A DNA stretch of 64,000 nt from an uncultured Hormoscilla sp. (GCA_963921275.4 OZ001293.3:4960001-5024000), one strand, 5' to 3'. Numbered from the stretch's first letter, positions 2,950-50,264 are shown. Notes: generated by a model not told the origin, from the letters alone. Numbers and translations: made by a program.

Positions 2950-4025
2950 TAATTGAGCTGCTACTTACTGCGGTTGTATTTATTTTCATCTGACTATATC
3001 TGTTGCAATCAAGCCAGTATTGCTTTCATCTTTCCTGGCTCAATGAAATTGAGCATACCTACTAATTCCCCAAAGATTCTGTCCGATCTACCCGACGGGA
3101 TAATTGGCACTAATGCCCCGATCGCCTACCGCTCTAGCATTTCAATAAATCACCGCGACAGTAAACACTCTTTGGTCGGGACTTACAGGGTTTCATTTGT
3201 AGCATACATTTTTCTAAATGGTAATATACGGTGCAAACTTTCCCTAAGCTTGCTGTTGCTGGCCAGTGGGTTCTTCGATCTCGATCCAACTGGAACACTT
3301 GCACTAATGCCCCGATCGCTTTTGGAGAATCATTCCCTATTTTTCCTAAACTTTCTGCTACTTGCCGGCGCGTCTCTCCATTTCTACTATTCTCTAGCAC
3401 TTACACCAATGCCTCGATCGCTTCTGAATCACTATTCCCTATTTTCCCTAAACTTTTTGCTACTTGCCGGCGCGTCTCTTCTACTATTCTCTAGCACTTT
3501 CACTAATGCCCCGATCGTCGATACCGTGCAAATTTTCCCTAAGCTTTCTGCTGCTTCCCTGTCAGTTGATTCTGATTGATAATACTGTAGCGTAGTTTGA
3601 CCAGCAGCAATTTTCCCAATCAAAGCAATTCCCTTTTCCTTTATTTTCCCTTGCCCTTGGGCTATAATTTGACTCAATAAAGCTTCCTTCTCAAGCCGCT
3701 GCTTCTGCACCATTTCGTCGCGTTTAGTGCCCTGTTCGAGAGAAATATCTCCCTCCATTTTATCGATTTTTTGCTCTGACACCAGCCCTAGGGGAACATC
3801 AATCGGTTGTCGCTCTTTCTTCGCTTTCTCATTATTGTGAAACAGATAATTTCCGGCGATTACCGTATTGAGCATTCCCGCACTAATGTAGCGCCCGGCT
3901 CCCTGTCTTTCGCTCCTCGCATCCTGCCCCGAAACAATAATAGTTTTGCTTTCAATATGAACTTTACTGCCAGGGGCAGCAAAAGCGCCTATTTTCTCAG
4001 CCAACTTACCATATTCTATATTCAT
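2950..4025 (-). pseudogene. Decayed NTPase/HEAT-repeat gene
   Basis: N-terminal ORF with degenerate P-loop (ALIGKIAAGQTTLQ) joined to HEAT repeats (ETRRQVAESLGKIG) spread over several frames with stops. Confidence 0.65.
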
Positions 4026-4152
4026 AGCTAATCATCCCAATTTTCAAAATCTATCTTACAGAGATTACCACATTTTCAACCATCAATAACTTCCGCTCCG
4101 GATCCCTTGACCTAGCGCGATATAATATTAGATCGCGCATGTCAAGCGATCG

Positions 4153-4244
4153 GGGTGCATCTCATATTGGTAAATAGATAACTCAGGTAACGATATAATA
4201 AGGGTTTCAGCCTTCAAACCTAGTGTTTTTGCAAAGATGCACCC
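4153..4244. mobile_element. Small MITE-like element
   Basis: Terminal inverted repeat GGGTGCATCT...AGATGCACCC; similar left ends near 11349 and 38753. Confidence 0.45.
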
Positions 4245-4304
4245 AAGTGATAAATGATACTGCCCTGGGAGGGCGACCTGGTAGACTTTTCAAACAACCT
4301 CTAA

Positions 4305-4745
4305 TTAAAAGCTCTGATGCTCAATTTTACCCGTACTGCCAGCTTGGACAAATTGCCCGATTTTATCGGCAAATTTGCCAAGATTAGACATGGATGGTTG
4401 TCGAAACTTCTGCTCATCTTTAATTTCTTGGAGAACTTCATATAGCATGGAATTTTGGTCAGCTTCTGCTTCTGCTGCTGTTGCCAATTCCTGCATCGCT
4501 TGGGCAACTTGAGGATTTCCCTTTGTTGCTGCTTCTATCTCCTGCATTGCTTTACTATAATCTAAAGGTAGTTCCCTCACCTGTTCAATGGCTATCATAG
4601 TACCTGGAGATTCTTCCTTGAGGGATTCTAGAAACTTTGCCGTCTGGTCAAATACTGCTTCTCCAACTTTTTCTCCTGTTTTTTCCAATGCTTTCGTAGC
4701 TAATACAGATCCAATAACTACAGCCGCCGTTGTTAAAGGTTCCAT
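4305..4745 (-). CDS. Hypothetical protein of a common cyanobacterial type (MEPLTTAA...TKALEKTGEKVGE)
   Basis: 146-aa ORF with GGAG upstream. Confidence 0.75.
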   Translation of the reverse strand: MEPLTTAAVVIGSVLATKALEKTGEKVGEAVFDQTAKFLESLKEESPGTMIAIEQVRELPLDYSKAMQEIEAATKGNPQVAQAMQELATAAEAEADQNSMLYEVLQEIKDEQKFRQPSMSNLGKFADKIGQFVQAGSTGKIEHQSF

Positions 4746-17504: not shown

Positions 17505-18645
17505 TTATCTATGCTTTGTGCCATCAGGCATAATTGTTTCCTTCAAGTTGGATGGGGTCGAGCCGGGAATCGCTTCCCGACCCTCCCTTGAGGAACCGGA
17601 CTTGCGATTTTCACCGCATCCGGCTACTGGGTACTAGGCCCTTTTCATAGGTAGACTTAATAGGAATTACTTCCGTTAGCCCTTGCCGCCTGTCTTTTCT
17701 TCCCTTTCCTGGTTTAGCGAGTGGTTGTTCTGATAACCGTTAGTATCACCATTTTCAAGTCAGTTTTACCAGTTATCCATACCTTATCCTCCACTTGCGT
17801 TTCGGATTAGTTCCGTGGCTTTTTAGGATTACTCATTCCAGCAGCTTCCTAGTATCACCGACCCACGTCAGCGCTGGCTACCCAGCATCATCTACATTAC
17901 TGTAGATGTTATCCCAGGAATTACCCCGGGCATTCGCTTCTTGGGCCATCCCTCCCCCCGTGGCTTGCGCTTAACATCTAACTTGTCCTGATGGACAGCA
18001 CACGAGAGGTTACTTCGTTCCCTAACAACATTTCGCGATACCTTTAGGTCCACACTATACCCCGGGAGCTATTTGAGTACTATATTAGCCAGAGTCTAAA
18101 ACTAATACTAGCTACCATTTCCTTTTTAGGCCAGCGCATATAGCCTTATTTCGCTGGTTCCTTATAACGAGGCTTGCACATGTTTGCCTGCTCTAACCTT
18201 GGATATCTTTCCTAGCGGCGTCACCGGCTTAGGCTGCCAGTTATCCTACATTTGAGTCCTCGCTTAGCACCACGATGATGTCGCTTCGTAGCACCGAGGA
18301 CCGGTGTCACCCCCGTACCTGGGGGGAGGGGAATTTAACCCCCATGCGGTCAGAGTTCCCGGCTAATGAAACCGGGCTAGCGTTCCGTGTTTGACCACGT
18401 TAGGCTAGAACGAATCGCACAGCACCGCTAAGGTTAGCACCGCTGAGGTTAGCACCAATCAGGCAGGAACGAAACAAGTTAACACCAATCAAGTTGGCAC
18501 TAAACAGGTTAGCACGGAACAAGTTGGCACGAAACAGGCTAGCACCAGCCAGGTTGGCACGAAACAAGTTGGCACGAAATAGGTCGGTATCGCGAAAATT
18601 CCTTTCTCCTGCGGCATAACGTGTCAGAAGTTCATTGGCATTCAT
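17505..18645 (-). CDS. Pentapeptide-repeat protein split by a group II intron (exon 1 18645-18421, exon 2 17549-17505)
   Basis: MNANELLTRYAAGERNF...ANLSGANLSGA | NLKETIMPDGTKHR*; removing 17550-18420 restores frame and the A-N-L register; an upstream ATG at 18702 is also possible. Confidence 0.8.
17550..18420 (-). mobile_element. ORF-less group II intron (IIB-like), copy 1
   Basis: 5' GTGCGATTCGTT; D5 AGCCGGATGCGGTGAAAATCGCAAGTCCGGTTC (17625-17593); D6 GGGAGGGTCGGGAAGCGATTCCCGGCTCGACCCC; 871 nt, no RT ORF; colinear with 33853-34687. Confidence 0.92.
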
Positions 18646-18709
18646 ATTAGCGTTTGCAGTTGTTGCAGTTCTAGATCGTCTCATTTTCTCACCCAGCGTC
18701 ATGGATCGT

Positions 18710-20339: not shown

Positions 20340-20907
20340 TATGGGCGCTATCAGCGGTAATAGTATTTAGGAGCAGCATTTTGGCTTCTATCCGGATATA
20401 ACCAATTTAGTTAAATTCAAATGTCCCAGATTTATCGAAGCTTCAAGCTGGGCGTGTTTCGGGAATTTATATTGTTAACGCGCTCTGACAAGGAGGTCAA
20501 AAGGTAAGTCAATCAAACTGCTGAATTCCTACAAGTCGAAAGCTCAGAAAATTTGCAGTATCTGGCTAAGGCTATGGGTAAACTTCTTATTGTTAGCCTG
20601 GTCTGGTCTGGTACTGATCTGCTAAATAAAAATGTACCCACTACAGTCCTGCCTCGGGCCGAACCAGCTCAATAATTTAACTTGCTATACTGGGGCGATC
20701 GCCTTTTGATGTTTCCTGGGGCGATCGCCAACTTCTGTGAATTGCTAATTGTGAATTGCGAAGTGCCAATTGATGGGGCGATCGACTGCGCCCAGAGGTG
20801 ATTGCCGCCAGGGATCTGTGCGTCTGCATCGGATGGAGTGGATCAGGGTTCAAAATTTGCCCTTGACCGAAAGGAATAGCAGACTTGCCTTGGGTCTTAA
20901 AGGTCTT

Positions 20908-21042
20908 AGCCGTATGAGGGGATAACTCTCATGTACGGTTAGTCGGGGAGGGGAGAGAGGTGACTCTCAAACCTTACCCTCTAAAGTCTCACGTCCGGTT
21001 CTGGAGACTCCTCGGGGAGGCGACTCCCTGGCTTAGTTTAAT
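20908..21042 (+). mobile_element. Nested group II intron 3' ends (twintron relic)
   Basis: Complete D5 AGCCGTATGAGGGGATAACTCTCATGTACGGTT + D6 ending CCTTACCCTCT, then the 3' half of a second D5 AAAGTCTCACGTCCGGTTCT + D6 ending GGCTTAGTTTAAT. Confidence 0.82.
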
Positions 21043-21048
21043 ATCTTA

Positions 21049-22060
21049 ACCTAAGTTGCGACCTATTAAAAAAAATATGAATTACCCACTTAGACTTTAC
21101 AGATATTTGGGATATTTCGTAGCTTTTGATACAAAATTATATTTTTTTTGTGCTAGACGGCGGGTTGGCTGTTTATAGGTTATAATGTACTAAAATAATA
21201 GTTAATTGCTGGGGGATGTAGATGATGGAAGATATGATTACAACAATTTTTGTTCTTTGTGACGAGCTACTAAAAGCGTTAAATATAAAAGAAGATCCAC
21301 AAGTAAAAATGAACAATGCCGAAGTGATGACAGTCGGATTAGTTGCTGCATATTTTTTCGGAGGACACCACGATCGCTCTTGTCAATTTATGGTCGAACA
21401 CAAGTATATAAAAAATCTGTTAAGTAAAAGTATGTTCAATCGTCGATTACACAATATTGACGAACCAATTTGGATGTTTTTCTTCCAAGTTATAGCTCAA
21501 ACATTTAAAGAGCTCAATCCGGGTCAAGAATATATTCTTGATAGTTTCCCGGTGCCAGTATGTGATAATATTAGGATTGATAGATGCCAAATTTATAACA
21601 ATGAAGAATATCGAGGGTATATTGCCAGTAAAAAACGTTATTTTTATGGATTAAGAGTTCATATGTTGGTAAACAAAAATGGAAAGCCAATAGAATTTTA
21701 TCTAGATCCTGGTAGTTATAATGATGTTAAAGTTTTGCAATCTTTTGGCTTTGACTTACCATCAAATTCAATAGTTTATGGAGATAAAGCTTATAATGAT
21801 TATCAATTAGAGGATTTACTAAAAGAGTCGTCAAGTATAATGTTAAAACCTTTGCGAAAAAAGAACTCAAAAAGAAAAGAATATTCTTGTTTTGAATATA
21901 TACAAAAAGTAACAAGAAAACAAGTTGAAACCTGTTTTAGTCGAATCACAAATTTGTTTCCCAAGTCAATTCATGCTGTTACATCTAAGGGATTAGAGTT
22001 GAAAATAATTCTCTTTATCATAGCTTTTTGTATCCAATTTTTATAGGTCGCAACTTGAGT
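21049..22060 (+). mobile_element. IS982-family insertion sequence, copy 1
   Basis: TIRs ACCTAAGTTGCGACCTAT / ATAGGTCGCAACTTGAGT; TSD TATCTTA; 1012 bp. Confidence 0.93.
21222..22046 (+). CDS. IS982-family DDE transposase
   Basis: LDSFPVPVC, GYIASKKRYFYGLRVH, GDKAY, RKQVETCFS, IHAVT. Confidence 0.93.
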   Translation: MMEDMITTIFVLCDELLKALNIKEDPQVKMNNAEVMTVGLVAAYFFGGHHDRSCQFMVEHKYIKNLLSKSMFNRRLHNIDEPIWMFFFQVIAQTFKELNPGQEYILDSFPVPVCDNIRIDRCQIYNNEEYRGYIASKKRYFYGLRVHMLVNKNGKPIEFYLDPGSYNDVKVLQSFGFDLPSNSIVYGDKAYNDYQLEDLLKESSSIMLKPLRKKNSKRKEYSCFEYIQKVTRKQVETCFSRITNLFPKSIHAVTSKGLELKIILFIIAFCIQFL

Positions 22061-23813: not shown

Positions 23814-24702
23814 TTACAGTTTCTTGGTTATCCTCTGGGCGGGCTGGATAGCTGAGGCCGTTCGTAGTAAACGCTAAAGCGTTTGCCCTGTTGCGGTTGA
23901 GAGTGCCTCGTTACTGGTGGGAGGGGCGATCAAGCGGCTGCGGACAGATGCGCCAGCGACCCAATAACCGGGTGGATGGGAAAAACCAGGTTTCTTGATT
24001 TTTAGGGCGATCGCACAGGTCTAGGGAACGGGTGGGGCGATCGCGCCGTCAAAATCTACTTTTTGGCATAGGTCTAAGATCTACTCCGCGCGGTCATGAA
24101 TTGCGTCTTTCTCGCAATTGCCCCAAACCCTTAGATCGCCCCGCATTCCCCATCAGGGCATGGTAAACTTCAATTAACCACAGTGACATCATCATTAATC
24201 AGGGTCGAATCAATCCCCTGCAGGGTGGCCAGGGTTTCCCCTTCAAAATTAATCCAGGTATCGAGGCCCTGAGAACCTCCTGCTAGCCCGATCGCATAGC
24301 GTTCGCGCAGCCCCCCGATCGCGTAGCGTTCGCGCAGCCCGATCGCGTCCGTACCCTCTTCAAAGTCTATGATAGTACCCATGTCCGACTCCAGAACAAA
24401 AATATTGGCCTCTGATCCTTCGTAGAGACGATCGCTTCCATGGTTTCCGTAGACGCGATCTCTTCCCTCCCCGCCGATCAGAGTGTCCTCCTCCTCCTTC
24501 TCAAAGAGTGATAAAGTTAGGGGTTGGGGGTTGAGAGTTAGGGATTGACGAGTATTGCTGAAGTTAAGGTCAGTAGGAGAGTCGGCAACATTGTTCACAT
24601 TAATAATCAAAGCCTCCGAGTAACTGGCCCCAGTAACGTCAATAGTCTGAACGCGGATACTGTAACTAGATCGAATCTCCAAGTCCGGAGAACTGTTAAT
24701 TA

Positions 24703-25714
24703 ACCTAAGTTGCGACCTATTAAAAAAAATATGAATTACCCACTTAGACTTTACAGATATTTGGGATATTTCGTAGCTTTTGATACAAAATTATATTTTT
24801 TTTGTGCTAGACGGCGGGTTGGCTGTTTATAGGTTATAATGTACTAAAATAATAGTTAATTGCTGGGGGATGTAGATGATGGAAGATATGATTACAACAA
24901 TTTTTGTTCTTTGTGACGAGCTACTAAAAGCGTTAAATATAAAAGAAGATCCACAAGTAAAAATGAACAATGCCGAAGTGATGACAGTCGGATTAGTTGC
25001 TGCATATTTTTTCGGAGGACACCACGATCGCTCTTGTCAATTTATGGTCGAACACAAGTATATAAAAAATCTGTTAAGTAAAAGTATGTTCAATCGTCGA
25101 TTACACAATATTGACGAACCAATTTGGATGTTTTTCTTCCAAGTTATAGCTCAAACATTTAAAGAGCTCAATCCGGGTCAAGAATATATTCTTGATAGTT
25201 TCCCGGTGCCAGTATGTGATAATATTAGGATTGATAGATGCCAAATTTATAACAATGAAGAATATCGAGGGTATATTGCCAGTAAAAAACGTTATTTTTA
25301 TGGATTAAGAGTTCATATGTTGGTAAACAAAAATGGAAAGCCAATAGAATTTTATCTAGATCCTGGTAGTTATAATGATGTTAAAGTTTTGCAATCTTTT
25401 GGCTTTGACTTACCATCAAATTCAATAGTTTATGGAGATAAAGCTTATAATGATTATCAATTAGAAAATTTACTAAAAGAGTCGTCAAGTATAATGTTAA
25501 AACCTTTGCGAAAAAAGAACTCAAAAAGAAAAGAATATTCTTGTTTTGAATATATACAAAAAGTAACAAGAAAACAAGTTGAAACCTGTTTTAGTCGAAT
25601 CACCAATTTGTTTCCCAAGTCAATTCATGCTGTTACATCTAAGGGATTAGAGTTGAAAATAATTCTCTTTATCATAGCTTTTTGTATCCAATTTTTATAG
25701 GTCGCAACTTAAGT
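24703..25714 (+). mobile_element. IS982-family insertion sequence, copy 2, inside a cadherin repeat
   Basis: Nearly identical to copy 1 (one D/N change in the transposase); TSD TAATTA; 1012 bp. Confidence 0.93.
24876..25700 (+). CDS. IS982-family DDE transposase
   Basis: 273/274 aa identical to 21222-22046. Confidence 0.93.
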   Translation: MMEDMITTIFVLCDELLKALNIKEDPQVKMNNAEVMTVGLVAAYFFGGHHDRSCQFMVEHKYIKNLLSKSMFNRRLHNIDEPIWMFFFQVIAQTFKELNPGQEYILDSFPVPVCDNIRIDRCQIYNNEEYRGYIASKKRYFYGLRVHMLVNKNGKPIEFYLDPGSYNDVKVLQSFGFDLPSNSIVYGDKAYNDYQLENLLKESSSIMLKPLRKKNSKRKEYSCFEYIQKVTRKQVETCFSRITNLFPKSIHAVTSKGLELKIILFIIAFCIQFL

Positions 25715-28700
25715 TAATTAGCAGTTGGTCCCCTACTATAGTGAAAGCAGCGTTATCATCGTCATCAAAACCCGAGATTAACCGGTAGGTAAAAGTATTT
25801 CCCCCGTCGGGATCGCTAGTAGAGAAAGTCCCCACGATCGCACCCGCACGGGAATTTTCATTGATGCTGCTGTTGCTAAGAACTATATCAGTAGGAGACT
25901 CAGCAACATTGTTCACATTAATAATCAAAGCCTCCAAGTAACTAGCCCCAGTAGAGTCAGTAGTCTGGACTAATATCCTGTAAATGGACTGAGTCTCAAA
26001 GTCCGGAACACCGTTAATTCGCAGTTGGTCCCCCACTATAGTGAAAGCAGCATTATCATCGTCACCGTCGCCCGAGACTAACTGGTAAATAAAGGTATCT
26101 CCATTATCGGAGTCGCTAGTTCCGAAAGTCCCCACAACTGCACCTGAGGGAGAATCTTCATTGAGGCTGCTGCTGCTAAGGACTATATCAGTAGGAGAGG
26201 AGTTCTCTGCAACATCAATAACATTAATAGTCAAGACCGACTCCAAATTGTTATTAGCAGAGTCAGTAGTCTGGACGCGGAGGCTGTAACTCGACTGAGT
26301 CTCAAAGTCCAAAGAACTATTAGTTAGCAGTTGATCCCCTACTATAGTGAAGGCATTGTTGCCCGAGACTAACTGGTAAGTAAAGGTATCTCCATTATCG
26401 GGATCGCTAGTTTCTAAAGTCCCCACAACTGCACCCCTAGGAGAGTTTTCATTGATGCTGCTGCTGCTAAGAACTATATCGGTAGGAGACTCGCCGACAT
26501 CGTTGACATTAATAGTCAAGACCGACTCCAAATTGTTATCAGCAGAGTCAGTAGTCTGGACGCGGATGCTGTAACTCGACTGAGTCTCAAAGTCCAAAGA
26601 ACTGTTAATTCGCAGTTGGTCCCCTACTATAGTAAAGGCATTGTTGCCCGAGACTAACTGGTAGGTAAAGCTATCTCCCTCGTCAGGGTCAGTAGTTCCG
26701 AAAGTCCCTACAACTGCACCTGAGGGGGAATTTTCATCGATGCTACTGCTGCTAAGGACTAGGTCGGTAGGAGACTCGCCGACATCGTTGACATTAATAG
26801 TCAAGACCGACTCCAAATTGTTATCAGCAGAGTCAGTAGTCTGGACGCGGATGCTGTAACTCGACTGAGTCTCAAAGTCCAAAGAACTGTTAATTCGCAG
26901 TTGGTCCCCTACTATAGTAAAGGCATTGTTGCCCGAGACTAACTGGTAGGTAAAGCTATCTCCCTCGTCAGGGTCAGTAGTTCCGAAAGTCCCTACAACT
27001 GCACCTGAGGGGGAATTTTCATCGATGCTACTGCTGCTAAGGACTAGGTCGGTAGGAGACTCGCCGACATCGTTGACATTAATAGTCAAGACCGACTCCA
27101 AATTGTTATCAGCAGAGTCAGTAGTCTGGACGCGGATGCTGTAACTCGACTGAGTCTCAAAGTCCAAAGAACTGTTAATTCGCAGTGAGTCTCCCACTAT
27201 GGTGAAAGCGTCATTATCATCGTCACCAACGCCTGAGACAAGCATATAGGTAAAGCGATCGTCAGCGTCAGGGTCAGTAGTAGAGAAAATGCCCACAACT
27301 GCACCCCCAGGGGAGTTTTCATCAATGCTACTGCTGCTGAGGTTGATGTCCGTCGGAGATTCGGCAACATCGTTCACGTCAATAATCAAAACCGACTCAA
27401 AAGCATTATTAGTAGAGTCGGTAGCTTGGACTGAGATGATGTAACTCGACTGAGTCTCAAAGTCCAAAGAACTGTTAGTTAGCAGTTGGTCCCCTACTAT
27501 CGTGAAGGCGTTGTTGCCGAAGACTAACTGATAGGTAAAACTATCTCCCTCGTCGGGGTCAGTAGTAGAGAAAGTCCCCACAACTGCACCCTCAGGAGAG
27601 TTTTCATCAATGCTGCTGCTGCTGAGAACTAAGTTGGTAGGAGACTCGGCAACATCATTGACGTTAATCATGAAGGCCTCCGTGTAACTGGCATCAGCAG
27701 AGTCAGTAGTCTGGACGCGGATGAGATAACTCGACTGAGTCTCAAAGTTTAAGGAACTGTTAATTCGCAGTTGGTCCCCTACTATAGTGAAGTCGGCGTT
27801 ATTATCGGCACCAGCGCCGGAGACTAACTGGTAGGTAAAGCTATCTCCCATGTCAGGGTCGGCAGTAGAGAAAGTCCCCACAACTGCACCATCAGAAGAG
27901 TTTTCATCAATACTGCTGTTGCTAAGGACTATGTCGGTAGGAGACTCGGCAACATCATTGACGTTAATCATGAAGCCTCCGTGTAACTGGCATCAGCAGA
28001 GTCAGTAGTCTGGACGCGGATGAGATAACTCGACTGAGTCTCAAAGTCCGGAGAACTGTTAATTCGCAGTTGGTCCCCTACTATAGTGAAGTCGGCGTTA
28101 TTATCGGCACCAGCGCCGGAGACTAACTGGTAGGTAAAGCTATCTCCCATGTCAGGGTCGGCAGTAGAGAAAGTCCCCACAACTGCACCCTCAGGAGAGT
28201 TTTCATTAATGCTGCTGCTGCTAAGGACTATGTCGGTAGGAGACTCGGCAACATCATTGACGTTAATAGTAAAGACCTCTGAGTAACTGGCCCCAACAAA
28301 GTCGGTAGTCTGGACGCGGATGCTGTAACTGGACTGGGTCTCAAAGTCCAAGGAACTGTTAGTTCGTAGTTGGTCCCCTACTATGGTGAAGGCTTCGTTA
28401 TGATCGGCACCCTCGCCTGTGACTAACTCGTAGGTAAAGCTATCTCCCATGTCAGGGTCGGCAGTAGAGAAAGTCCCTACGACTGCACCCTCAGGAGAGT
28501 TTTCATCAATGCTGCTGCTGCTAAGGACTATGTCGGTAGGAGACTCATCAATAATATTGTTGACGTTAATAGTAAAGACCTCTGAGTAACTGGCCATAGC
28601 AGCGTCGGTAGTCTGGACGCGGATGCTGTAACTGGACTGGGTCTCAAAGTCCAAGGAACTGTTAGTTCGTAGTTGATCCCCTACTATGGTGAAGGCTTCG

Positions 28701-30880
28701 TTATGATCGGCACCCTCGCCTGTGACTAACTCGTAGGTAAAGCTATCTCCTTCGTCAAGGTCGGCAGTAGAGAAAGTCCCTACGACTGTACCCTCAGCGG
28801 AGTTTTCATTAATGCTGCTGCTGCTAAGGACTATGTCGGTAGGAGACTCATCAATAATATTGTTGACGTTAATAGTAAAGACCTCTGAGTAACTGGCCCC
28901 AACAGAGTCGGTAGTCTGGACGCGGATGCTGTAACTGGACTGGGTCTCAAAGTCCAAGGAACTGTTAGTTCGTAGTTGATCCCCTACTATGGTGAAGGCT
29001 TCGTGATCATCGTTGTCGCCTGTGACTAACTCGTAGGTAAAGCTATCTCCCATGTCAGGGTCGGTAGTAGAGAAAGTCCCTACGACTGTACCCTCAGGGG
29101 AGTTTTCATTGATGCTGCTGTTGCTAAGGACTATGTCGGTAGGAGACTCGTTAACATTGTTGACGTTGATAGTAAAGACCTCTGAGTAACTGGCCATAGC
29201 AGCGTCGGTAGTCTGGACGCGGATGCTGTAACTGGACTGGGTCTCAAAGTCCAAGGAACTGTTAGTTCGTAGTTGGTCTCTTACTATGGTGAAGGCTTCG
29301 TTATGATCGGCACCCTCGCCTGTGACTAACTCGTAGGTAAAGCTATCTCCTTCGTCAAGGTCGGCAGTAGAGAAAGTTCCTACGACTGTACCCTCAGCGG
29401 AGTTTTCATTAATGCTGCTGTTGCTGAGTTCGAGGTCTGTAGGACGATAGTTGGTCCTGAATTGGTTGCCGAACAGGTCGTCACTGTTCAGCAAGGTGCC
29501 CGGCATGATGGACGCTGGAGTGGACGTTTCCACATTATTAGCGGCCAGATTTTCCGAGAAGGTTACATCTGTGAGGGTCACGGTCGGCAGGCTGGTGGGC
29601 AGGCCCTCGTTGTTATTTTTTTCATCTTCGATATTGATGGTGATGTGCAGGGCGAAAATGGCGCCCCCCAGACCTTGGCCGCCGGGTTTCCACCTTGAGC
29701 TTCATTGTCGTCAAACCTGCTGTTCAAAACGCTGAGCTCGCCCTCGCGGATGAATATGGCTCCGCCCATGCCTGCGCCGCCGCCGCCGGCTATTGTCAGC
29801 GTCGCCGCCGCCGAAGCCGGCGTCGCCTCTGGGGCCGCAGGGGCCTCTGCTGGCGCCGTCGCCGTCGTCGAGGCCGCCGAAGCCGCCGAGGCTGCCGAAG
29901 CCGCCTGTGCCGATGTCGTCGAAGCCGCCGCCTGTGGCGCCTGTGCCGCAGACGCCGCCGCCGCCGAAGCCGCCTGTGCCGCCCATGCCGCGAGAGCGGC
30001 CCACATCGCCCATGCCGCCCATACCGCCGTTTTCGCCGAAGAGGCCGGTGCCGCCCTTTTCGCCGATGCCGACGTCTGGCGTATTATTAGTAGGAATGAC
30101 GAAATTAGCATTACCACCTGCTCCACTGCTGCCGCCCTCGCCACCAATGGCGCTATTATTCTGGAAAGTGCTATCGGTCACCGTGACCGTCCCGTCAAAG
30201 ACAAACAGGGCACCGCCTATGCCTGCCCCGCCGCCGCCGCCATTGCCTCCTAGGGCCCGGCCATCGCTAAAGGTCAGGTCATCGAAATTGACTGTACCGC
30301 TTTTGACAAAGAACAGCCGGTACTGGTTTAAGCCATTAATGGTGTTGTCGTTCCCATTTATCGTCAGCCCGACGTCTTCTTCAATAAGGGGTAGCAACTC
30401 CGTCAGGGTAATATCTCCCGTGATGTTAATGGTATCTGCCTGAGTTTTACTATTGGAACTGGTGATGGCTTGGGATAGTTCTATTGCTGTGTCTACGTCA
30501 AATGTAGCCATAATTTCTCCTGGCGGTGAGCGAAGTTGAATGTAAAGGATGAACTTTTTTAGGGGTTGGTCACCGGCGACCTTGAGGGAAGATTTTAGCC
30601 CTCTTTTGTACACCGGTAACCTTTCCTGCTTTAACTACAGTCATTAATACATATTTTACGGAAATTATCATAATTTTTTTTGCCACTATACCGTCGGGGT
30701 GGGGTGTCTCTGTTCAATAACGATGTCTGTGTAGTTCCCATGTCGATCGCCAGTTATGCCCCATTATTGTTATACATCATATTCGCTGGCGATCCCTCCC
30801 TAGCCTTTTCAACAGGCGCTATTGAGCAATTTGCCTCCGGGGGCTGGAGGGGCTCTTCTTGCCAACGGGCGCAAGACCAC

Positions 30881-33815: not shown

Positions 33816-33817
33816 AA

Positions 33818-34725
<908 letters not shown>

Positions 34726-34994
34726 AAGTCGTCATATCTTTAGTTTACCCCAAGATTGACAGTTACCGTCCCTTAAGCAAAGATAAAACTGGTTGCGCCT
34801 TGGGTGAGAATTACGTTAAATTATATTAAGATTCTGGCTCTTGGGCTTAAAAATTCTCTATAGCTAGCTGCTGAAGGAGAAGGGCCGCTACTGGCAGTCA
34901 GGAAAAAGCGTCTGTTAAAGACAAAAAATTGGGGCAAACACCCAAGACATTCGATCGCACTGTTGTAAGCCATATATAGACATCACCGAAACAG

Positions 34995-40402: not shown

Positions 40403-41644
40403 ATGATCGAAAAAGACCATTCTCCTAAATCAGTCCCCCGCATTGAATATCTGAAGGTAAAAAATTATCGTGCCCTGCGGGACTTAGAACTAAAGAATAT
40501 TACACCGTTAACAGTGCTTCTCGGTCCGAATGGCAGTGGCAAGTCCACCATCTTCGATATGTTTGCCTTCCTGTCAGAGTGTTTTTCTGTGGGGTTGCGA
40601 AAAGCCTGGGACAAACGCGGCAAGTTCAGGGAACTGCGCAGCCGTGGTGCTGAAGGGCCAATTGTAATAGAGTTGAAATATCGCGAAACGCCCGAACAAC
40701 CGATAATTACCTATCATTTAGCTATTGATGAAAACGGCAAAGGACCATACGTCGCGGAAGAGTGGCTGCAATGGAGAAGAGGACAAAGAGGGAAGCCATT
40801 CCGGTTTCTTAATTTCAAAGAAGGTGCCGGACAAGTTGTCACTGGCGAGATGCCAGATGAACAGGATGAGAGAATTGAGGAACAGCTAGATTCTTCAGAA
40901 ATGTTGGCAGTCAATACTCTGGGTCAATTTGCTAAGCACCCCCGCGTCAGCGCCCTCCGTCGCTTCATCACTAGCTGGTATTTGTCCTACCTCACCGCTG
41001 ATAATACGCGCAGTCTTCCGGAAGCCGGACCGCAAGAACGGTTATCAGCCACTGGCGACAACCTACCCAACGTGATTCAATACCTCAAAGAACAATACCC
41101 TGATAGACTAGAGCGGATTCTGCAAATCCTATCCCAAAGGGTGCCCCGACTGGAGAAAGTTGAAGCGGAAATGATGCGGGATGGACGGTTGTTATTGCAG
41201 ATTAAAGATGCCCCATTTCCCCAGCCAATTCTCGCCAAGTTTGCCTCAGACGGGACTCTCAAAATGCTGGTATACCTGACGGTTCTTTATGACCCAGAAC
41301 CGCCACAACTCGTCGGCATTGAGGAACCAGAAAATCATCTGCATCCCCGCTTGTTACCAGAACTAGGAGAGGAATGTAGGTTAGGATCTGCCAAGACCCA
41401 ATTGATGGTAACGACTCATTCTCCCTTCTTTATCAATGGTCTCAGATCAGAAGAACTGTGGGTACTGTATCGAGATGAAGAAGGTTATACCCGAGCGAGG
41501 CGAACTGCTGATATGCAAGGCGTTAAGGAATTTCTGGAACATGGTGCCCTCTTAGGAAATCTGTGGATGGAAGATTTCTTTGAAGTTGGCAATCCTCTGG
41601 TGAATACTGGTGGTCCAAAAACTAGAGGCAAGGGCAAGAAATAG
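40403..41644 (+). CDS. AAA_21/ABC-type ATPase
   Basis: [29 protein letters not shown]. Confidence 0.9.
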
Positions 41645-41665
41645 TTAACAGCGGAATAAGGAATA

Positions 41666-42286
41666 ATGCACTTTTAATTTTTAGTCGAGGAAATATCTCT
41701 TCAGGTTGCCTTAGACAACCTTTTACCGTCAATATTAAGGGAAGACATAACCTTTAATATTCATCCTTATCAAGGCAAAAATGATCTGCTATTTAAATTG
41801 CCCGATCGCTTTAAAGGTTATAAGCAGTGGTTGCAGTGGTTGCTAGATGATTTCCGCATTGTAGTTCTAATTGACGAAGACCGAGAAGATTGTATCAAAC
41901 TCAAGCAGAAATTGGAGGACATAGCGGTTGATGTTGGCTTAGTAACTAAGACAGCAGCGGGGACAGATCGACCCTTTCAAGTCTTGAACAGATTGGTAAT
42001 TGAAGAATTAGAGGCATGGTTTTTTGGGGATGTAGAAGCTATTTGTGCAGCCTACCCACGCATTTCACCTAGTCTAGCACAGCAGGCGAAGTATCGCAAC
42101 CCTGATGCAGTTAAAGGTGGTACTTGGGAAGCACTGGAACGAGAACTGAAGAAAAAAGGTTATCATCCTGGTGGTTTGAACAAGCTAATGGCTGCGCGGG
42201 AAATCTCCCAACATATGAACCCGGAACGTAACAGTTCTCATAGTTTTCAGGTCTTCCGGGATGCCTTGTTGCGGATGGGAAAGTGA
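41666..42286 (+). pseudogene. DUF4276-type (TOPRIM-like) partner protein, nonsense at codon 4
   Basis: ATG CAC TTT TAA TTT TTA GTC GAG GAA (MHF*FLVEE), same frame as the 41798-42286 ORF with VLIDED, EELEAWFFGD, NSSHSF. Confidence 0.85.
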
Positions 42287-47942: not shown

Positions 47943-48798
47943 CTAAAAAGGCTGATTGTTACTTTCCCATGTTATCATATCTAAATATAGTCGCGTTTTC
48001 TGAAAATACACTTCCTCGTAAGCAAGTCGTAAATTCTGTTCCAGACTATGGGGTTCAACATCAGCAGCTTTATTGGAACCAATTGCTTTCCGTAAGCCAA
48101 GAGACAGAATTTCTACTAAGTGGTGACCGCAGCAGACTTGCCAGCGATCGTGACTGTTGCTTCTTTTGTTCGTTAGTCGTTGTTGCAGTTCTTCGTCTTT
48201 CAAGGATAAGGCTTGGGATTTATTCTTAACTTCTCGAATTAGCTTTAATTCATCAATTTGCAGGGTTCGATCGTCAACGAAATTGCTGAATTTTATCCCA
48301 TCAAAGGTCAGATTTAATCCATCACACTGAGAAACCCAAAGCAGATAACCAACCCACATCCCCGCTTCAAGTAATGCTGTTCTCACATCTCGATTAAACT
48401 TAGCAATTTTCTCCTGGGATCCGAATTCAGTAATCACCTTATCGAGGGCGGGCGAGTCTAACAGCATGGTTTCCAAGTCATGACTGTCTGTATACAGTAG
48501 GTTAAGACTGTTAGGTGGTGAAGTTTCCAAACGATCGAAATCAGCATCAACAATTGCCAAAACTCCCTGAAAGCTTGATTTCTCTAAAATTTCCAGAACG
48601 GCAATAACACGTAGCTTGCTAGAAGGTTTTCCCGAAACACAGACCAATTGACAAGCATGCTCGTCAACAAAGCGCTGGTAGAAAATTTTGTCTAAACTAC
48701 CTTCTACCAACAATAAAGTCCCTGAAAAAGTGCTTCTTCATAATCTGATGTAATCTGATTTTGTTCGCATCACGGTCATCCGAAAGAAATTCTCTCAC
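47943..48798 (-). pseudogene. DUF4435 (AriB-like TOPRIM nuclease), frameshifted near the start
   Basis: GTG 48798 overlaps the upstream TGA; 10-bp duplication ATCAGATTAC/ATCAGATTAT; downstream LVEGSLD, IVDADFD, HDLETML, CCGH. Confidence 0.8.
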
Positions 48799-50165
48799 TT
48801 TTTTGGTCCTTTCAGTTCAACAGTCAAATCCCAGCGGTCTTGAATAATATCTGGAGAATGGGTTGCCATGAGAATATCTAAGTTTGCCAGCTTTGTTATT
48901 TCTTGTAAATCCCTTAAAAACTCAACCTGCCATCCTACGTGAAGAGATAGTTCTGGTTCATTAATCAAGACTAGGGAGTCAGGTTTAACCTTAAATAGTA
49001 GTTCATAGAAAAGAACCAACTCATGTTGTTCGCCCGATGATAAATCAGTTGGCGAAAGTTCTTTAGGATCGGAGGGTGAGGAGGGATGATAACAGCTTGT
49101 TAAAACAAATTCTTTCTTCTTGCTAAAATTCATCTCTTTATAGGAATAAGCAATTTTTTTGTTAATTATTCTCCTTAACAACTCAAGTCTTTTTTCTATG
49201 TCACTAAAAACATTCAATTTGTTTTTCATATCCTCAAGATATACTAATAATATCTTTCTGGTCGTTTCATCTATAGCTTCAGGCTGGAACTGAAAGTCTC
49301 GGTTTTCATCCTTATTCAATAGACCCACTTCTATCAGGAGATCGCGCGTCTTATCAAGTTCATTTAGTTGATGACGAAGTTCTTCATTTGTCCAATTTTT
49401 TGATGACTGCTGCTTTACCACTCTTACTGGAAACGTTCTATCAAGAGATTGAGATATTGTACCATATTCAGTAAACTTGTCTCGCATAAGTTTTGCGATC
49501 TGTTTAGAATATGCCAACACAGTTGGCAACATCGAACCTGTTGCATTATAGGATTGGGAAGAACGATTACGAACAAAGTTGACCAGGCGTTGTGTTTTTA
49601 TGAGACGAACATCAATCTCTCTCTTCAGATTTTTTAGCCACTCAGGTTCCTTTTCTAACCTTGTCATCTCTGGGGGCAGGGGCAAGAAATCTTCAAAACG
49701 ATCTAGTACATCTGCTAAAGAAAGAATCTCTCCAGTGGTCCTATCCCTCCATTTTCTAGTACCTACTCGGAAAAGCGTAGGTTTTATATCCTCCAAAAGA
49801 TATTCCAAAGTATCAAGTTCATAAGCATCCATTCTCCTCGTCTTTGGACTAAAATCAACCGTCTTTGAATCTGTCTCGAATTTAAAATTTATATTATTTT
49901 TCTTATCTGGATTTTCTCTGTTGTTAGATATGTTGGCTATCTCAACACTACTACCATTATCAAACTCAACTCTGAACTTGCTAAATGGAATATTCCGAAA
50001 CACTGAGTATCGGGATTTAAAAAATCCATCGATCATCTTCAGTATTACTGTTTTCCCAAAGCCATTCGGACCATGCATGATAGTGACCCGATCGTCCATA
50101 TTTAACGGAATCACATGGTCAAAAATTTCAAATAAGCCGCTGACTGAAATTTGCTGAATTCGCAT
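48795..50165 (-). CDS. AAA_15/AAA_21 ATPase (AriA-like), Walker B reads INEPE
   Basis: GPNGFGKT, LSSGEQH, LINEPELSLH, ATHSP; start at MRIQQISVSGLF. Confidence 0.88.
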   Translation of the reverse strand: MRIQQISVSGLFEIFDHVIPLNMDDRVTIMHGPNGFGKTVILKMIDGFFKSRYSVFRNIPFSKFRVEFDNGSSVEIANISNNRENPDKKNNINFKFETDSKTVDFSPKTRRMDAYELDTLEYLLEDIKPTLFRVGTRKWRDRTTGEILSLADVLDRFEDFLPLPPEMTRLEKEPEWLKNLKREIDVRLIKTQRLVNFVRNRSSQSYNATGSMLPTVLAYSKQIAKLMRDKFTEYGTISQSLDRTFPVRVVKQQSSKNWTNEELRHQLNELDKTRDLLIEVGLLNKDENRDFQFQPEAIDETTRKILLVYLEDMKNKLNVFSDIEKRLELLRRIINKKIAYSYKEMNFSKKKEFVLTSCYHPSSPSDPKELSPTDLSSGEQHELVLFYELLFKVKPDSLVLINEPELSLHVGWQVEFLRDLQEITKLANLDILMATHSPDIIQDRWDLTVELKGPKK

Positions 50166-50264
50166 AGTCCTCGATCTCCATAATGGTAGGGCAAGGTGGG
50201 CGATGCCCACCCTACTTTATCCTGCGACCGCCTCATAAGGTGGTGGGCGATGCCCACCCTACAG

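Follow-up and report, generated by a model that had tools for sequence, protein, structure and literature searches.

A predicted ORF-less group II intron in a pentapeptide-repeat gene belongs to a Hormoscilla intron family with diversified exon-binding sites

Here we describe an 871-nt element (copy A, 17550..18420 on the minus strand) in a 64,000-nucleotide stretch of DNA from an uncultured Hormoscilla sp., referred to below as the window. Copy A is very probably an intact IIB-type group II intron that splits a small pentapeptide-repeat gene and whose domain 4 (D4) encodes no protein; with the same degree of assurance, a second element in the window (copy B) is its paralogue and the family is also present in Hormoscilla metagenome-assembled genomes (MAGs).

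The identification of copy A is based on its ends, its match to the Rfam family RF00029 (group II D5/D6), its colinearity with copy B and the absence of an ORF. The 5' end is GTGCG (18420 to 18416), and the first six bases of the intron are invariant in all six aligned copies. RF00029 matches at 17552-17628(-) with 44.4 bits (gathering threshold 40), one of three D5/D6 matches in the window that exceed gathering, the others being at 33854-33931(-) and 20905-20982(+). Permissive Rfam thresholds gave for copy A just a weak match to the D1-D4-2 model (22 bits against a gathering threshold of 36), which provides no class assignment. On neither strand does the interior contain an ORF as long as 80 aa, and a tblastn search with four cyanobacterial intron reverse transcriptases (RTs) detected no RT remnant in D4, the sole overlap being a stop-to-stop frame of an intron from Microcoleus (L006) that runs over D5. 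An 871-nt ORF-less element, colinear with the intron in the tRNA gene and with a short D4 lacking an RT, is what the initial annotation had described.

The 3' end of copy A reads ...CCCCATCC at 17550 (in a longer reading, ...CTCGACCCCATCC). The 3' AY of group II introns is a consensus feature and is not absolute. It is absent here, as copy A ends in CC and copy B in CT, and several relatives also end in CC. A high-copy Hormoscilla subfamily has AC at the alignment column of copy A's CC, and its flanks diverge straight after this column. By eye, no alignment column made a convincing gamma-gamma' partner for the last base, which varies among copies. Because the usual end is AY, the CC end is a point against copy A being an intact intron.

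The host gene provides an independent view of the boundaries. Exon 1 (18421..18702, minus strand) was recognised from the ORF list and its translation as 94 codons of a small pentapeptide-repeat gene (Pfam PF00805, E 1.5e-8). Exon 2 (17505..17549, minus strand) comprises 14 codons, NLKETIMPDGTKHR, and a stop, and was recognised by the frame and the A-N-L-x-x register that are kept at the join. Joining 18421 to 17549 creates the junction GGTGCT/AACTTG and the product ...ANLSGANLSGA/NLKETIMPDGTKHR, in which neither the frame nor the five-residue periodicity is disturbed. When the start of exon 2 is shifted, five of six alternatives lead to a premature stop and the remaining one (17552) is in frame but inserts an extra Ser, and the register is lost. 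The unspliced reading ends six codons into copy A (...SGAVRFVLA, then a stop) and loses the last 14 residues; for annotation, copy A explains an apparently truncated pentapeptide ORF. Homologues of exon 1 gave no confirmation of the exon-2 tail: the six of 24 candidates that passed are all low-complexity pentapeptide proteins whose C-termini differ and are unrelated, and this lack of confirmation also counts against our interpretation. Correct ligation of the pentapeptide exons is a prediction made from sequence alone.

Copy B is an 835-nt ORF-less intron (33853..34687, minus strand) in a tRNA-Arg(UCU) gene about 16 kb from copy A. Its limits were taken from the alignment, by which the end initially placed at 33857 is corrected to 33853, and it accounts for the second of the RF00029 matches listed above. 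The tRNA gene (33817-34726, minus strand, with exons at 34688-34726 and 33817-33852) is split after position 38, in the anticodon loop. When the exons were joined by script, ARAGORN recognised a 75-nt tRNA-Arg(tct); the same program missed the gene in the raw window, and the intron explains why. Copies A and B align end to end (73.4% identity across 873 columns by blastn, E 9e-144; 81% mean column identity by MAFFT), and blastn found no further family copies in the 64-kb window.

Relatives outside the window were sought by a D5-pattern scan of genome contigs, which returned at least 89 rows from many phyla, the pattern being too general; none of those listed came from the source genome. With copies A and B as blastn queries, similarity beyond D5/D6 was confined to Hormoscilla MAGs among the 89 matches listed. 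An nhmmer profile of D1 reached, outside the family, only weak matches in two distantly related RT-bearing introns, L024 (1e-8) and L006 of Microcoleus (8e-4), and a distant-mode search of a plasmid collection gave no match. The Hormoscilla copies are 980 nt (L062), 933 nt (L015) and 1355 nt (L003) in length, together with the 5' part of a copy (L042), two 3' parts (L043 and L028) and one more D5/D6 3' end each in L087 and L088. At least four of them besides A and B (L062, L015, L003 and L042) include D1 and the 5' flank, and all full family copies are without an ORF. The expectation that the intron belongs to a family with further copies is borne out by these and by the many 3' ends.

The L015 copy (3457-4389, minus strand, Hormoscilla sp. 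SP12CHS1) lies within psaJ, the gene that immediately follows psaF, and splits it after codon 5. Its exon 1 consists of the first five codons, and exon 2 covers positions 6-37 of the 37 in the Pfam PsaJ profile (E 5.6e-19). Since psaJ belongs to photosystem I, this ORF-less copy presumably must splice. The boundary columns of the alignment were fixed independently three times, by the pentapeptide frame, by the tRNA-Arg(tct) that ARAGORN recognised and by psaJ in L015. Because correct products are obtained in three hosts at the same columns, the boundaries proposed in the initial annotation are right.

At least ten pieces from Hormoscilla SP12CHS1 carry near-identical D5/D6 sequences that end in ...TAAC (nine are identical and L043 differs by one base) and run into different flanks directly after this end. 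Most lie at contig ends, as is expected where a repeat breaks short-read assemblies. Near-identical 3' ends in different flanks indicate that at least one subfamily has transposed recently. The copies in the window are more distantly related. In D1, A and B are mutually nearest with 77.5% identity; together with L062 they form an unresolved trio, and a second clade unites L015 and L003. The proposal that copy A was re-targeted from the tRNA gene to a protein gene is upheld insofar as the exon-binding sites (EBS) fit the copy's own exons, but the direction from tRNA to protein gene does not follow, given the 22.5% difference in D1 and the trio with L062.

A six-domain fold is predicted for the family and is backed by covariation. 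D1 has 108 consensus pairs (RNAalifold, six copies), 56 of them with at least one compensatory double change; copies A and B each keep 106 of the 108 and the other copies 102-106. D2-D4 (17631..17989, minus strand) are short and structured, contain no ORF and have 64 pairs, 28 of which are compensatory (RNAalifold, five sequences). D5 (17594..17625, minus strand, Rfam alignment) has the AGC triad and a GAAA loop, in agreement with the group II pattern of a helix of about 34 nt with a 2-nt bulge and a GNRA loop, and its 13 pairs are kept in all ten family sequences with the sole exception of one end gap. D6 (17555..17587, minus strand, RNAalifold, ten sequences) has a bulged branch-point A at 17558, which is followed by 8 nt and the end of the intron. 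D5 and D6 together have 26 pairs, and the five that are compensatory all lie in D6. Copy A's D5 is the family consensus and its D6 departs from the consensus by compensatory changes only. The hairpin stem below EBS1 (columns 407-413/425-431) consists of seven pairs, each with at least one double change, so that the compensatory changes noticed earlier in the EBS1 stem and D6 are recovered by RNAalifold. Because the helices were predicted from the same sequences, the pair counts lean towards the model, and the compensatory changes are the informative part. Most of the divergence between A and B (about 22%) is compensatory, a sign that the fold has long been under selection.

That copy A might be no functional unit at all, whether a fortuitous resemblance or a duplicate of the tRNA intron created in assembly, has next to no probability. 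Duplication in assembly is excluded by the identity of only 73% (E 9e-144); the D1 covariation and the RF00029 match above gathering refute a chance resemblance, and nothing was found in favour of either.

The three exon-binding sites of copy A are located in D1. EBS2 (TAAGG, 18160..18164, minus strand) is single-stranded and lies just after the stem at columns 341-346/451-456. EBS1 (AGACTC, 18092..18097, minus strand) is in a terminal loop (columns 414-424). EBS3 (T, 18057, minus strand) is column 458 in a 3-nt internal-loop strand (457-459) between the paired columns 456 and 460, and RNAalifold places this loop opposite columns 337-340, at the foot of the EBS-bearing arm. We take this placement, with the EBS3 loop as the coordination loop, to be the arrangement of IIB introns. 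The earlier proposal was open to refutation by a structure that put the motifs outside the EBS loops; the D1 model puts all three in the expected loops.

Pairing was scored for EBS1 against exon positions -6..-1, for EBS2 against -13..-9 and for EBS3 against the first base of exon 2. In copy A, IBS1 is GGTGCT (18421..18426, minus strand) and IBS2 is CCTTA (18433 to 18429, minus strand). As initially claimed, TAAGG is the exact complement of this CCTTA (5/5), and AGACTC pairs with GGTGCT imperfectly (4/6). EBS3 switches between the two copies in the way that had been suggested, with T at 18057 facing the exon-2 base A (17549) in copy A and A at 34328 facing T in copy B. Copy B pairs with its own exons at every position (EBS1 6/6, EBS2 5/5, EBS3 1/1). 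Among the relatives, L003 scores 6/6 for EBS1 (with three wobbles), 5/5 for EBS2 and T:A for EBS3; L015 has 5/6, 5/5 and T:A; and L062 has 6/6, 4/5 and G:T. L042 has 2/6 for EBS1 and 4/5 for EBS2, its 3' exon being absent from the locus.

Over the six copies, own-exon pairing amounts to 28/30 for EBS2, 29/36 for EBS1 and 57/66 for the two combined. When exons were permuted among copies, the observed values were matched by 1/720, 4/720 and 1/720 permutations, respectively. EBS3 pairs with its own exon in all five copies that could be scored, a result equalled by 12/120 permutations and weak alone. The covariation of exon-binding sites with flanking exons that was predicted across copies is thereby found in the family. 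Within the window, copy A's own site scores 10/12, and only 160 of 127,973 sites score as high. The misfit among the copies is L042, whose short-read contig spans 4 kb and terminates in an inverted D5/D6; a chimeric contig or an ectopic insertion may be the cause. Its poor fit is a further point against the general reading.

From the sequence and the model, the working of copy A can be proposed as follows. The intron would be transcribed together with its host gene and then fold. The 5' exon would be held by EBS2 (TAAGG) on CCTTA (-13..-9) and by EBS1 (AGACTC) on GGTGCT (-6..-1), the bulged A of D6 (17558) would attack the 5' splice site, and EBS3 (T, 18057) would align the A that begins exon 2. 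Exon ligation would then yield ...ANLSGA/NLKETIMPDGTKHR and the stop. In vivo, splicing would be either self-catalysed or aided by a maturase in trans.

The weak EBS1 counts against copy A being intact. The mismatches are two adjacent central positions (A opposite G at -3 and C opposite T at -4), and they would be expected to make copy A splice less well than its relatives. Against copy A's IBS1, the EBS1 of L003 (AGTGTC) would pair 6/6 and that of L062 5/6, and the exons of A, L003 and L062 share the pattern G-R-T-G-N-T. The better fit of these two EBS1 sequences suggests that the copy A loop drifted away from a GRTGNT-type target. Most simply, copy A would have inserted at a member of the GRTGNT group of targets, with the centre of its EBS1 changing later. 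Alternatively, copy A may have been inserted ectopically with an imperfect EBS1. The exon itself may also have changed, for instance through exchange among the 15-nt units repeated in tandem immediately upstream. A search for an empty site cognate to copy A's EBS set (CCTTA-NN-GAGTCT-A, at most two mismatches) gave two matches, against 4.3 expected by chance. One site in the window matches copy A's EBS set at 12/12, which by our own estimate is about the chance level.

The same evidence bears on whether copy A still splices usefully. It could be a stranded relic, either inserted with a poor EBS1 or left with one by drift, so that the gene simply ends six codons into the intron; we regard this as unlikely. 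It would accommodate the two central mismatches, the better match of the L003 and L062 EBS1 sequences to copy A's exon, the 3' end that is not AY and the absence of an RT among the window ORFs, and an early stop may cost a small repeat protein little. However, copy A's D1 retains as many pairs as the copies in tRNA-Arg and psaJ or more, its D5 is identical to the consensus, its D6 changes are purely compensatory, and EBS2 and EBS3 still match the exons. The long selection on the fold to which the largely compensatory divergence from copy B points also argues against a relic.

No RT was found that could serve it. Pfam detected no RVT_1 or GIIM domain among the 37 ORFs of the 64-kb window, nor among ORFs of at least 180 aa from ten Hormoscilla loci. 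The latter belonged to a set of 36 ORFs taken from 48 listed, the other 12 being duplicates (the overlapping L041 and L042), overlapping frames or non-intron flanks. Among the matches listed, RTs occur only in unrelated introns (Microcoleus, Rivularia, Nostoc and Paraprochloron) that have D5 alone in common with the family. A closely related RT-bearing intron was seen neither in the window nor in the Hormoscilla loci, and the missing RT/maturase is a point against the preferred interpretation. By analogy with known systems, it is plausible that an RT is supplied in trans. Copy A would then have arrived by RNA-guided reverse splicing (retrohoming or retrotransposition) with an RT from elsewhere. 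The initial annotation had proposed a non-autonomous family that is spread by an RT/maturase acting in trans and diversifies its target specificity. The family and its diversified exon-binding sites are supported, but an RT donor was not found among the window ORFs or in the ten loci.

A different explanation is that the family is immobile in the source organism, with the introns vertically inherited and self-splicing or host-assisted, like ORF-less introns of plastids, and with no RT today. We consider this fairly unlikely. In its favour, the copies in the window are old, judging by their D1 identity, some members interrupt genes whose expression is required (tRNA-Arg(UCU) and psaJ), neither the window nor the Hormoscilla loci yielded an RT, and D4 is free of any remnant; passages of PMC4424553 describe C.te.I1 as self-splicing although its genome encodes no intron-encoded protein (IEP). 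On the other hand, the near-identical 3' ends in different flanks of one Hormoscilla MAG record recent transposition, and EBS sets that differ and are fitted to unrelated exons require past RNA-guided insertions. The absence of an RT says little, since it covers just 64 kb of the source genome. A bolder reading is that an ORF-less IIB lineage persists and still multiplies in Gomontiellaceae-type cyanobacteria, comprising the source organism of the window and Hormoscilla symbionts of sponges, without a close RT-encoding parent, in hosts such as tRNA-Arg(UCU) and psaJ whose expression is required, and kept by a heterologous RT of relaxed specificity or by a host maturase. This is speculative and we would give it low credence; if true, free-living bacteria would offer a parallel to plastids, where a single splicing apparatus serves many degenerate introns.

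Several other features of the window were recorded. The third D5/D6 match (20905-20982, plus strand, 45.8 bits) is unrelated in sequence to the family of copies A and B. Upstream of it there is no RT ORF and no recognisable ribozyme, GTGCG being present only about 165 nt upstream, and it is probably a 5'-truncated intron remnant. Just past this orphan D5/D6, a 66-nt segment (20976-21041) is 89% identical to L052:1738-1803 from Hormoscilla SP12CHS1 and may be a small shared repeat. An insertion sequence (IS) copy begins about 60 nt downstream of the D5/D6. There are two such copies (21046-22046 and 24700-25700, plus strand), with DDE transposases of 274 aa (PF13612/PF01609) at 21222-22046 and 24876-25700 and an identical 175 bp upstream. 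Two consecutive large ORFs (25695-29581, minus strand; 758 and 537 aa) contain multiple cadherin domains and are adjoined by an RTX-repeat ORF (24170-24682). A gene pair at 40403-42286(+) matches the PADLOC candidate system HEC-01 (HEC-01A, E 1e-170; HEC-01B, E 3e-71). An adjacent pair at 47943-50210(-) matches PADLOC AriA (E 3e-22; AAA_15/AAA_21) and AriB (E 5e-23; DUF4435) and is, by these matches, a predicted PARIS-like anti-phage defence pair.

We found no link between Hormoscilla and introns in the literature, and for a group II intron with psaJ the matches listed hold plastid reports only. The mechanism itself is already known, as are target-changing intron families in cyanobacteria. According to passages of PMC4424553, ORF-less introns are rare in bacteria and nearly always accompany related IEP-encoding introns, with C.te.I1 as the one exception. 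Certain genomes nevertheless have expanded sets of ORF-less introns, and some cyanobacteria have more than 100 group II introns (PMC8919778). What is particular to the present case is how deeply the copies have diverged, the absence of an ORF remnant and the hosts, namely tRNA-Arg(UCU), psaJ and a pentapeptide gene.

The closest precedent is the TeI3 group of ORF-less introns of Thermosynechococcus elongatus (Mohr, Ghanem and Lambowitz 2010, PMC2882425), whose diverged EBS sequences match their own sites, as they do here. In the sections of that paper considered here, T. elongatus is described as having 28 introns, 17 of them ORF-less and derived from one deletion, and mobilisation of ORF-less introns by the 'driver' RTs of other introns is demonstrated. 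A family member, TeI4h, lies in a tRNA-Ile(CAU) gene. The two families thus share a tRNA gene as host and a proposed mobilisation or splicing by the RTs of other introns. They differ in that the T. elongatus copies, by the same sections, are near-identical within families and have visible ORF remnants, whereas the copies described here are 73-81% identical and have no RT remnant. In addition, the ORF-less copies of T. elongatus coexist with related introns that do have an ORF, and the proteins of these have been shown to mobilise them; no related RT-bearing intron was found in the window or the Hormoscilla loci, where the family is known from its sequence.

C.te.I1 of Clostridium tetani is likewise ORF-less, lies in a protein-coding gene and possibly splices without a cognate IEP, but it occurs singly and has alternative 3' splice sites (PMC4424553), whereas the present family is multi-copy with retargeted EBS. 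Plastid ORF-less introns (in tRNA genes, ndhA/ndhB and petD) are also found in tRNA and photosystem-related genes, and they depend on factors supplied in trans (PMC4424553, same passages). Copy A's D5 matches the plastid ndhA-ndhB model (30.8 bits, E 6e-5) and the petD model well below their gathering thresholds of 61 and 65.5. Many plastid introns are degenerate, whereas the ribozyme here looks complete and its pairing is well conserved. The present host is moreover a free cyanobacterial genome with relatives that have undergone recent copy-number expansion. ORF-less intron families that switch targets serve as models for the spread of introns and the origin of a common splicing machinery, and with this locus the case of T. 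elongatus is joined by a second lineage of cyanobacteria.
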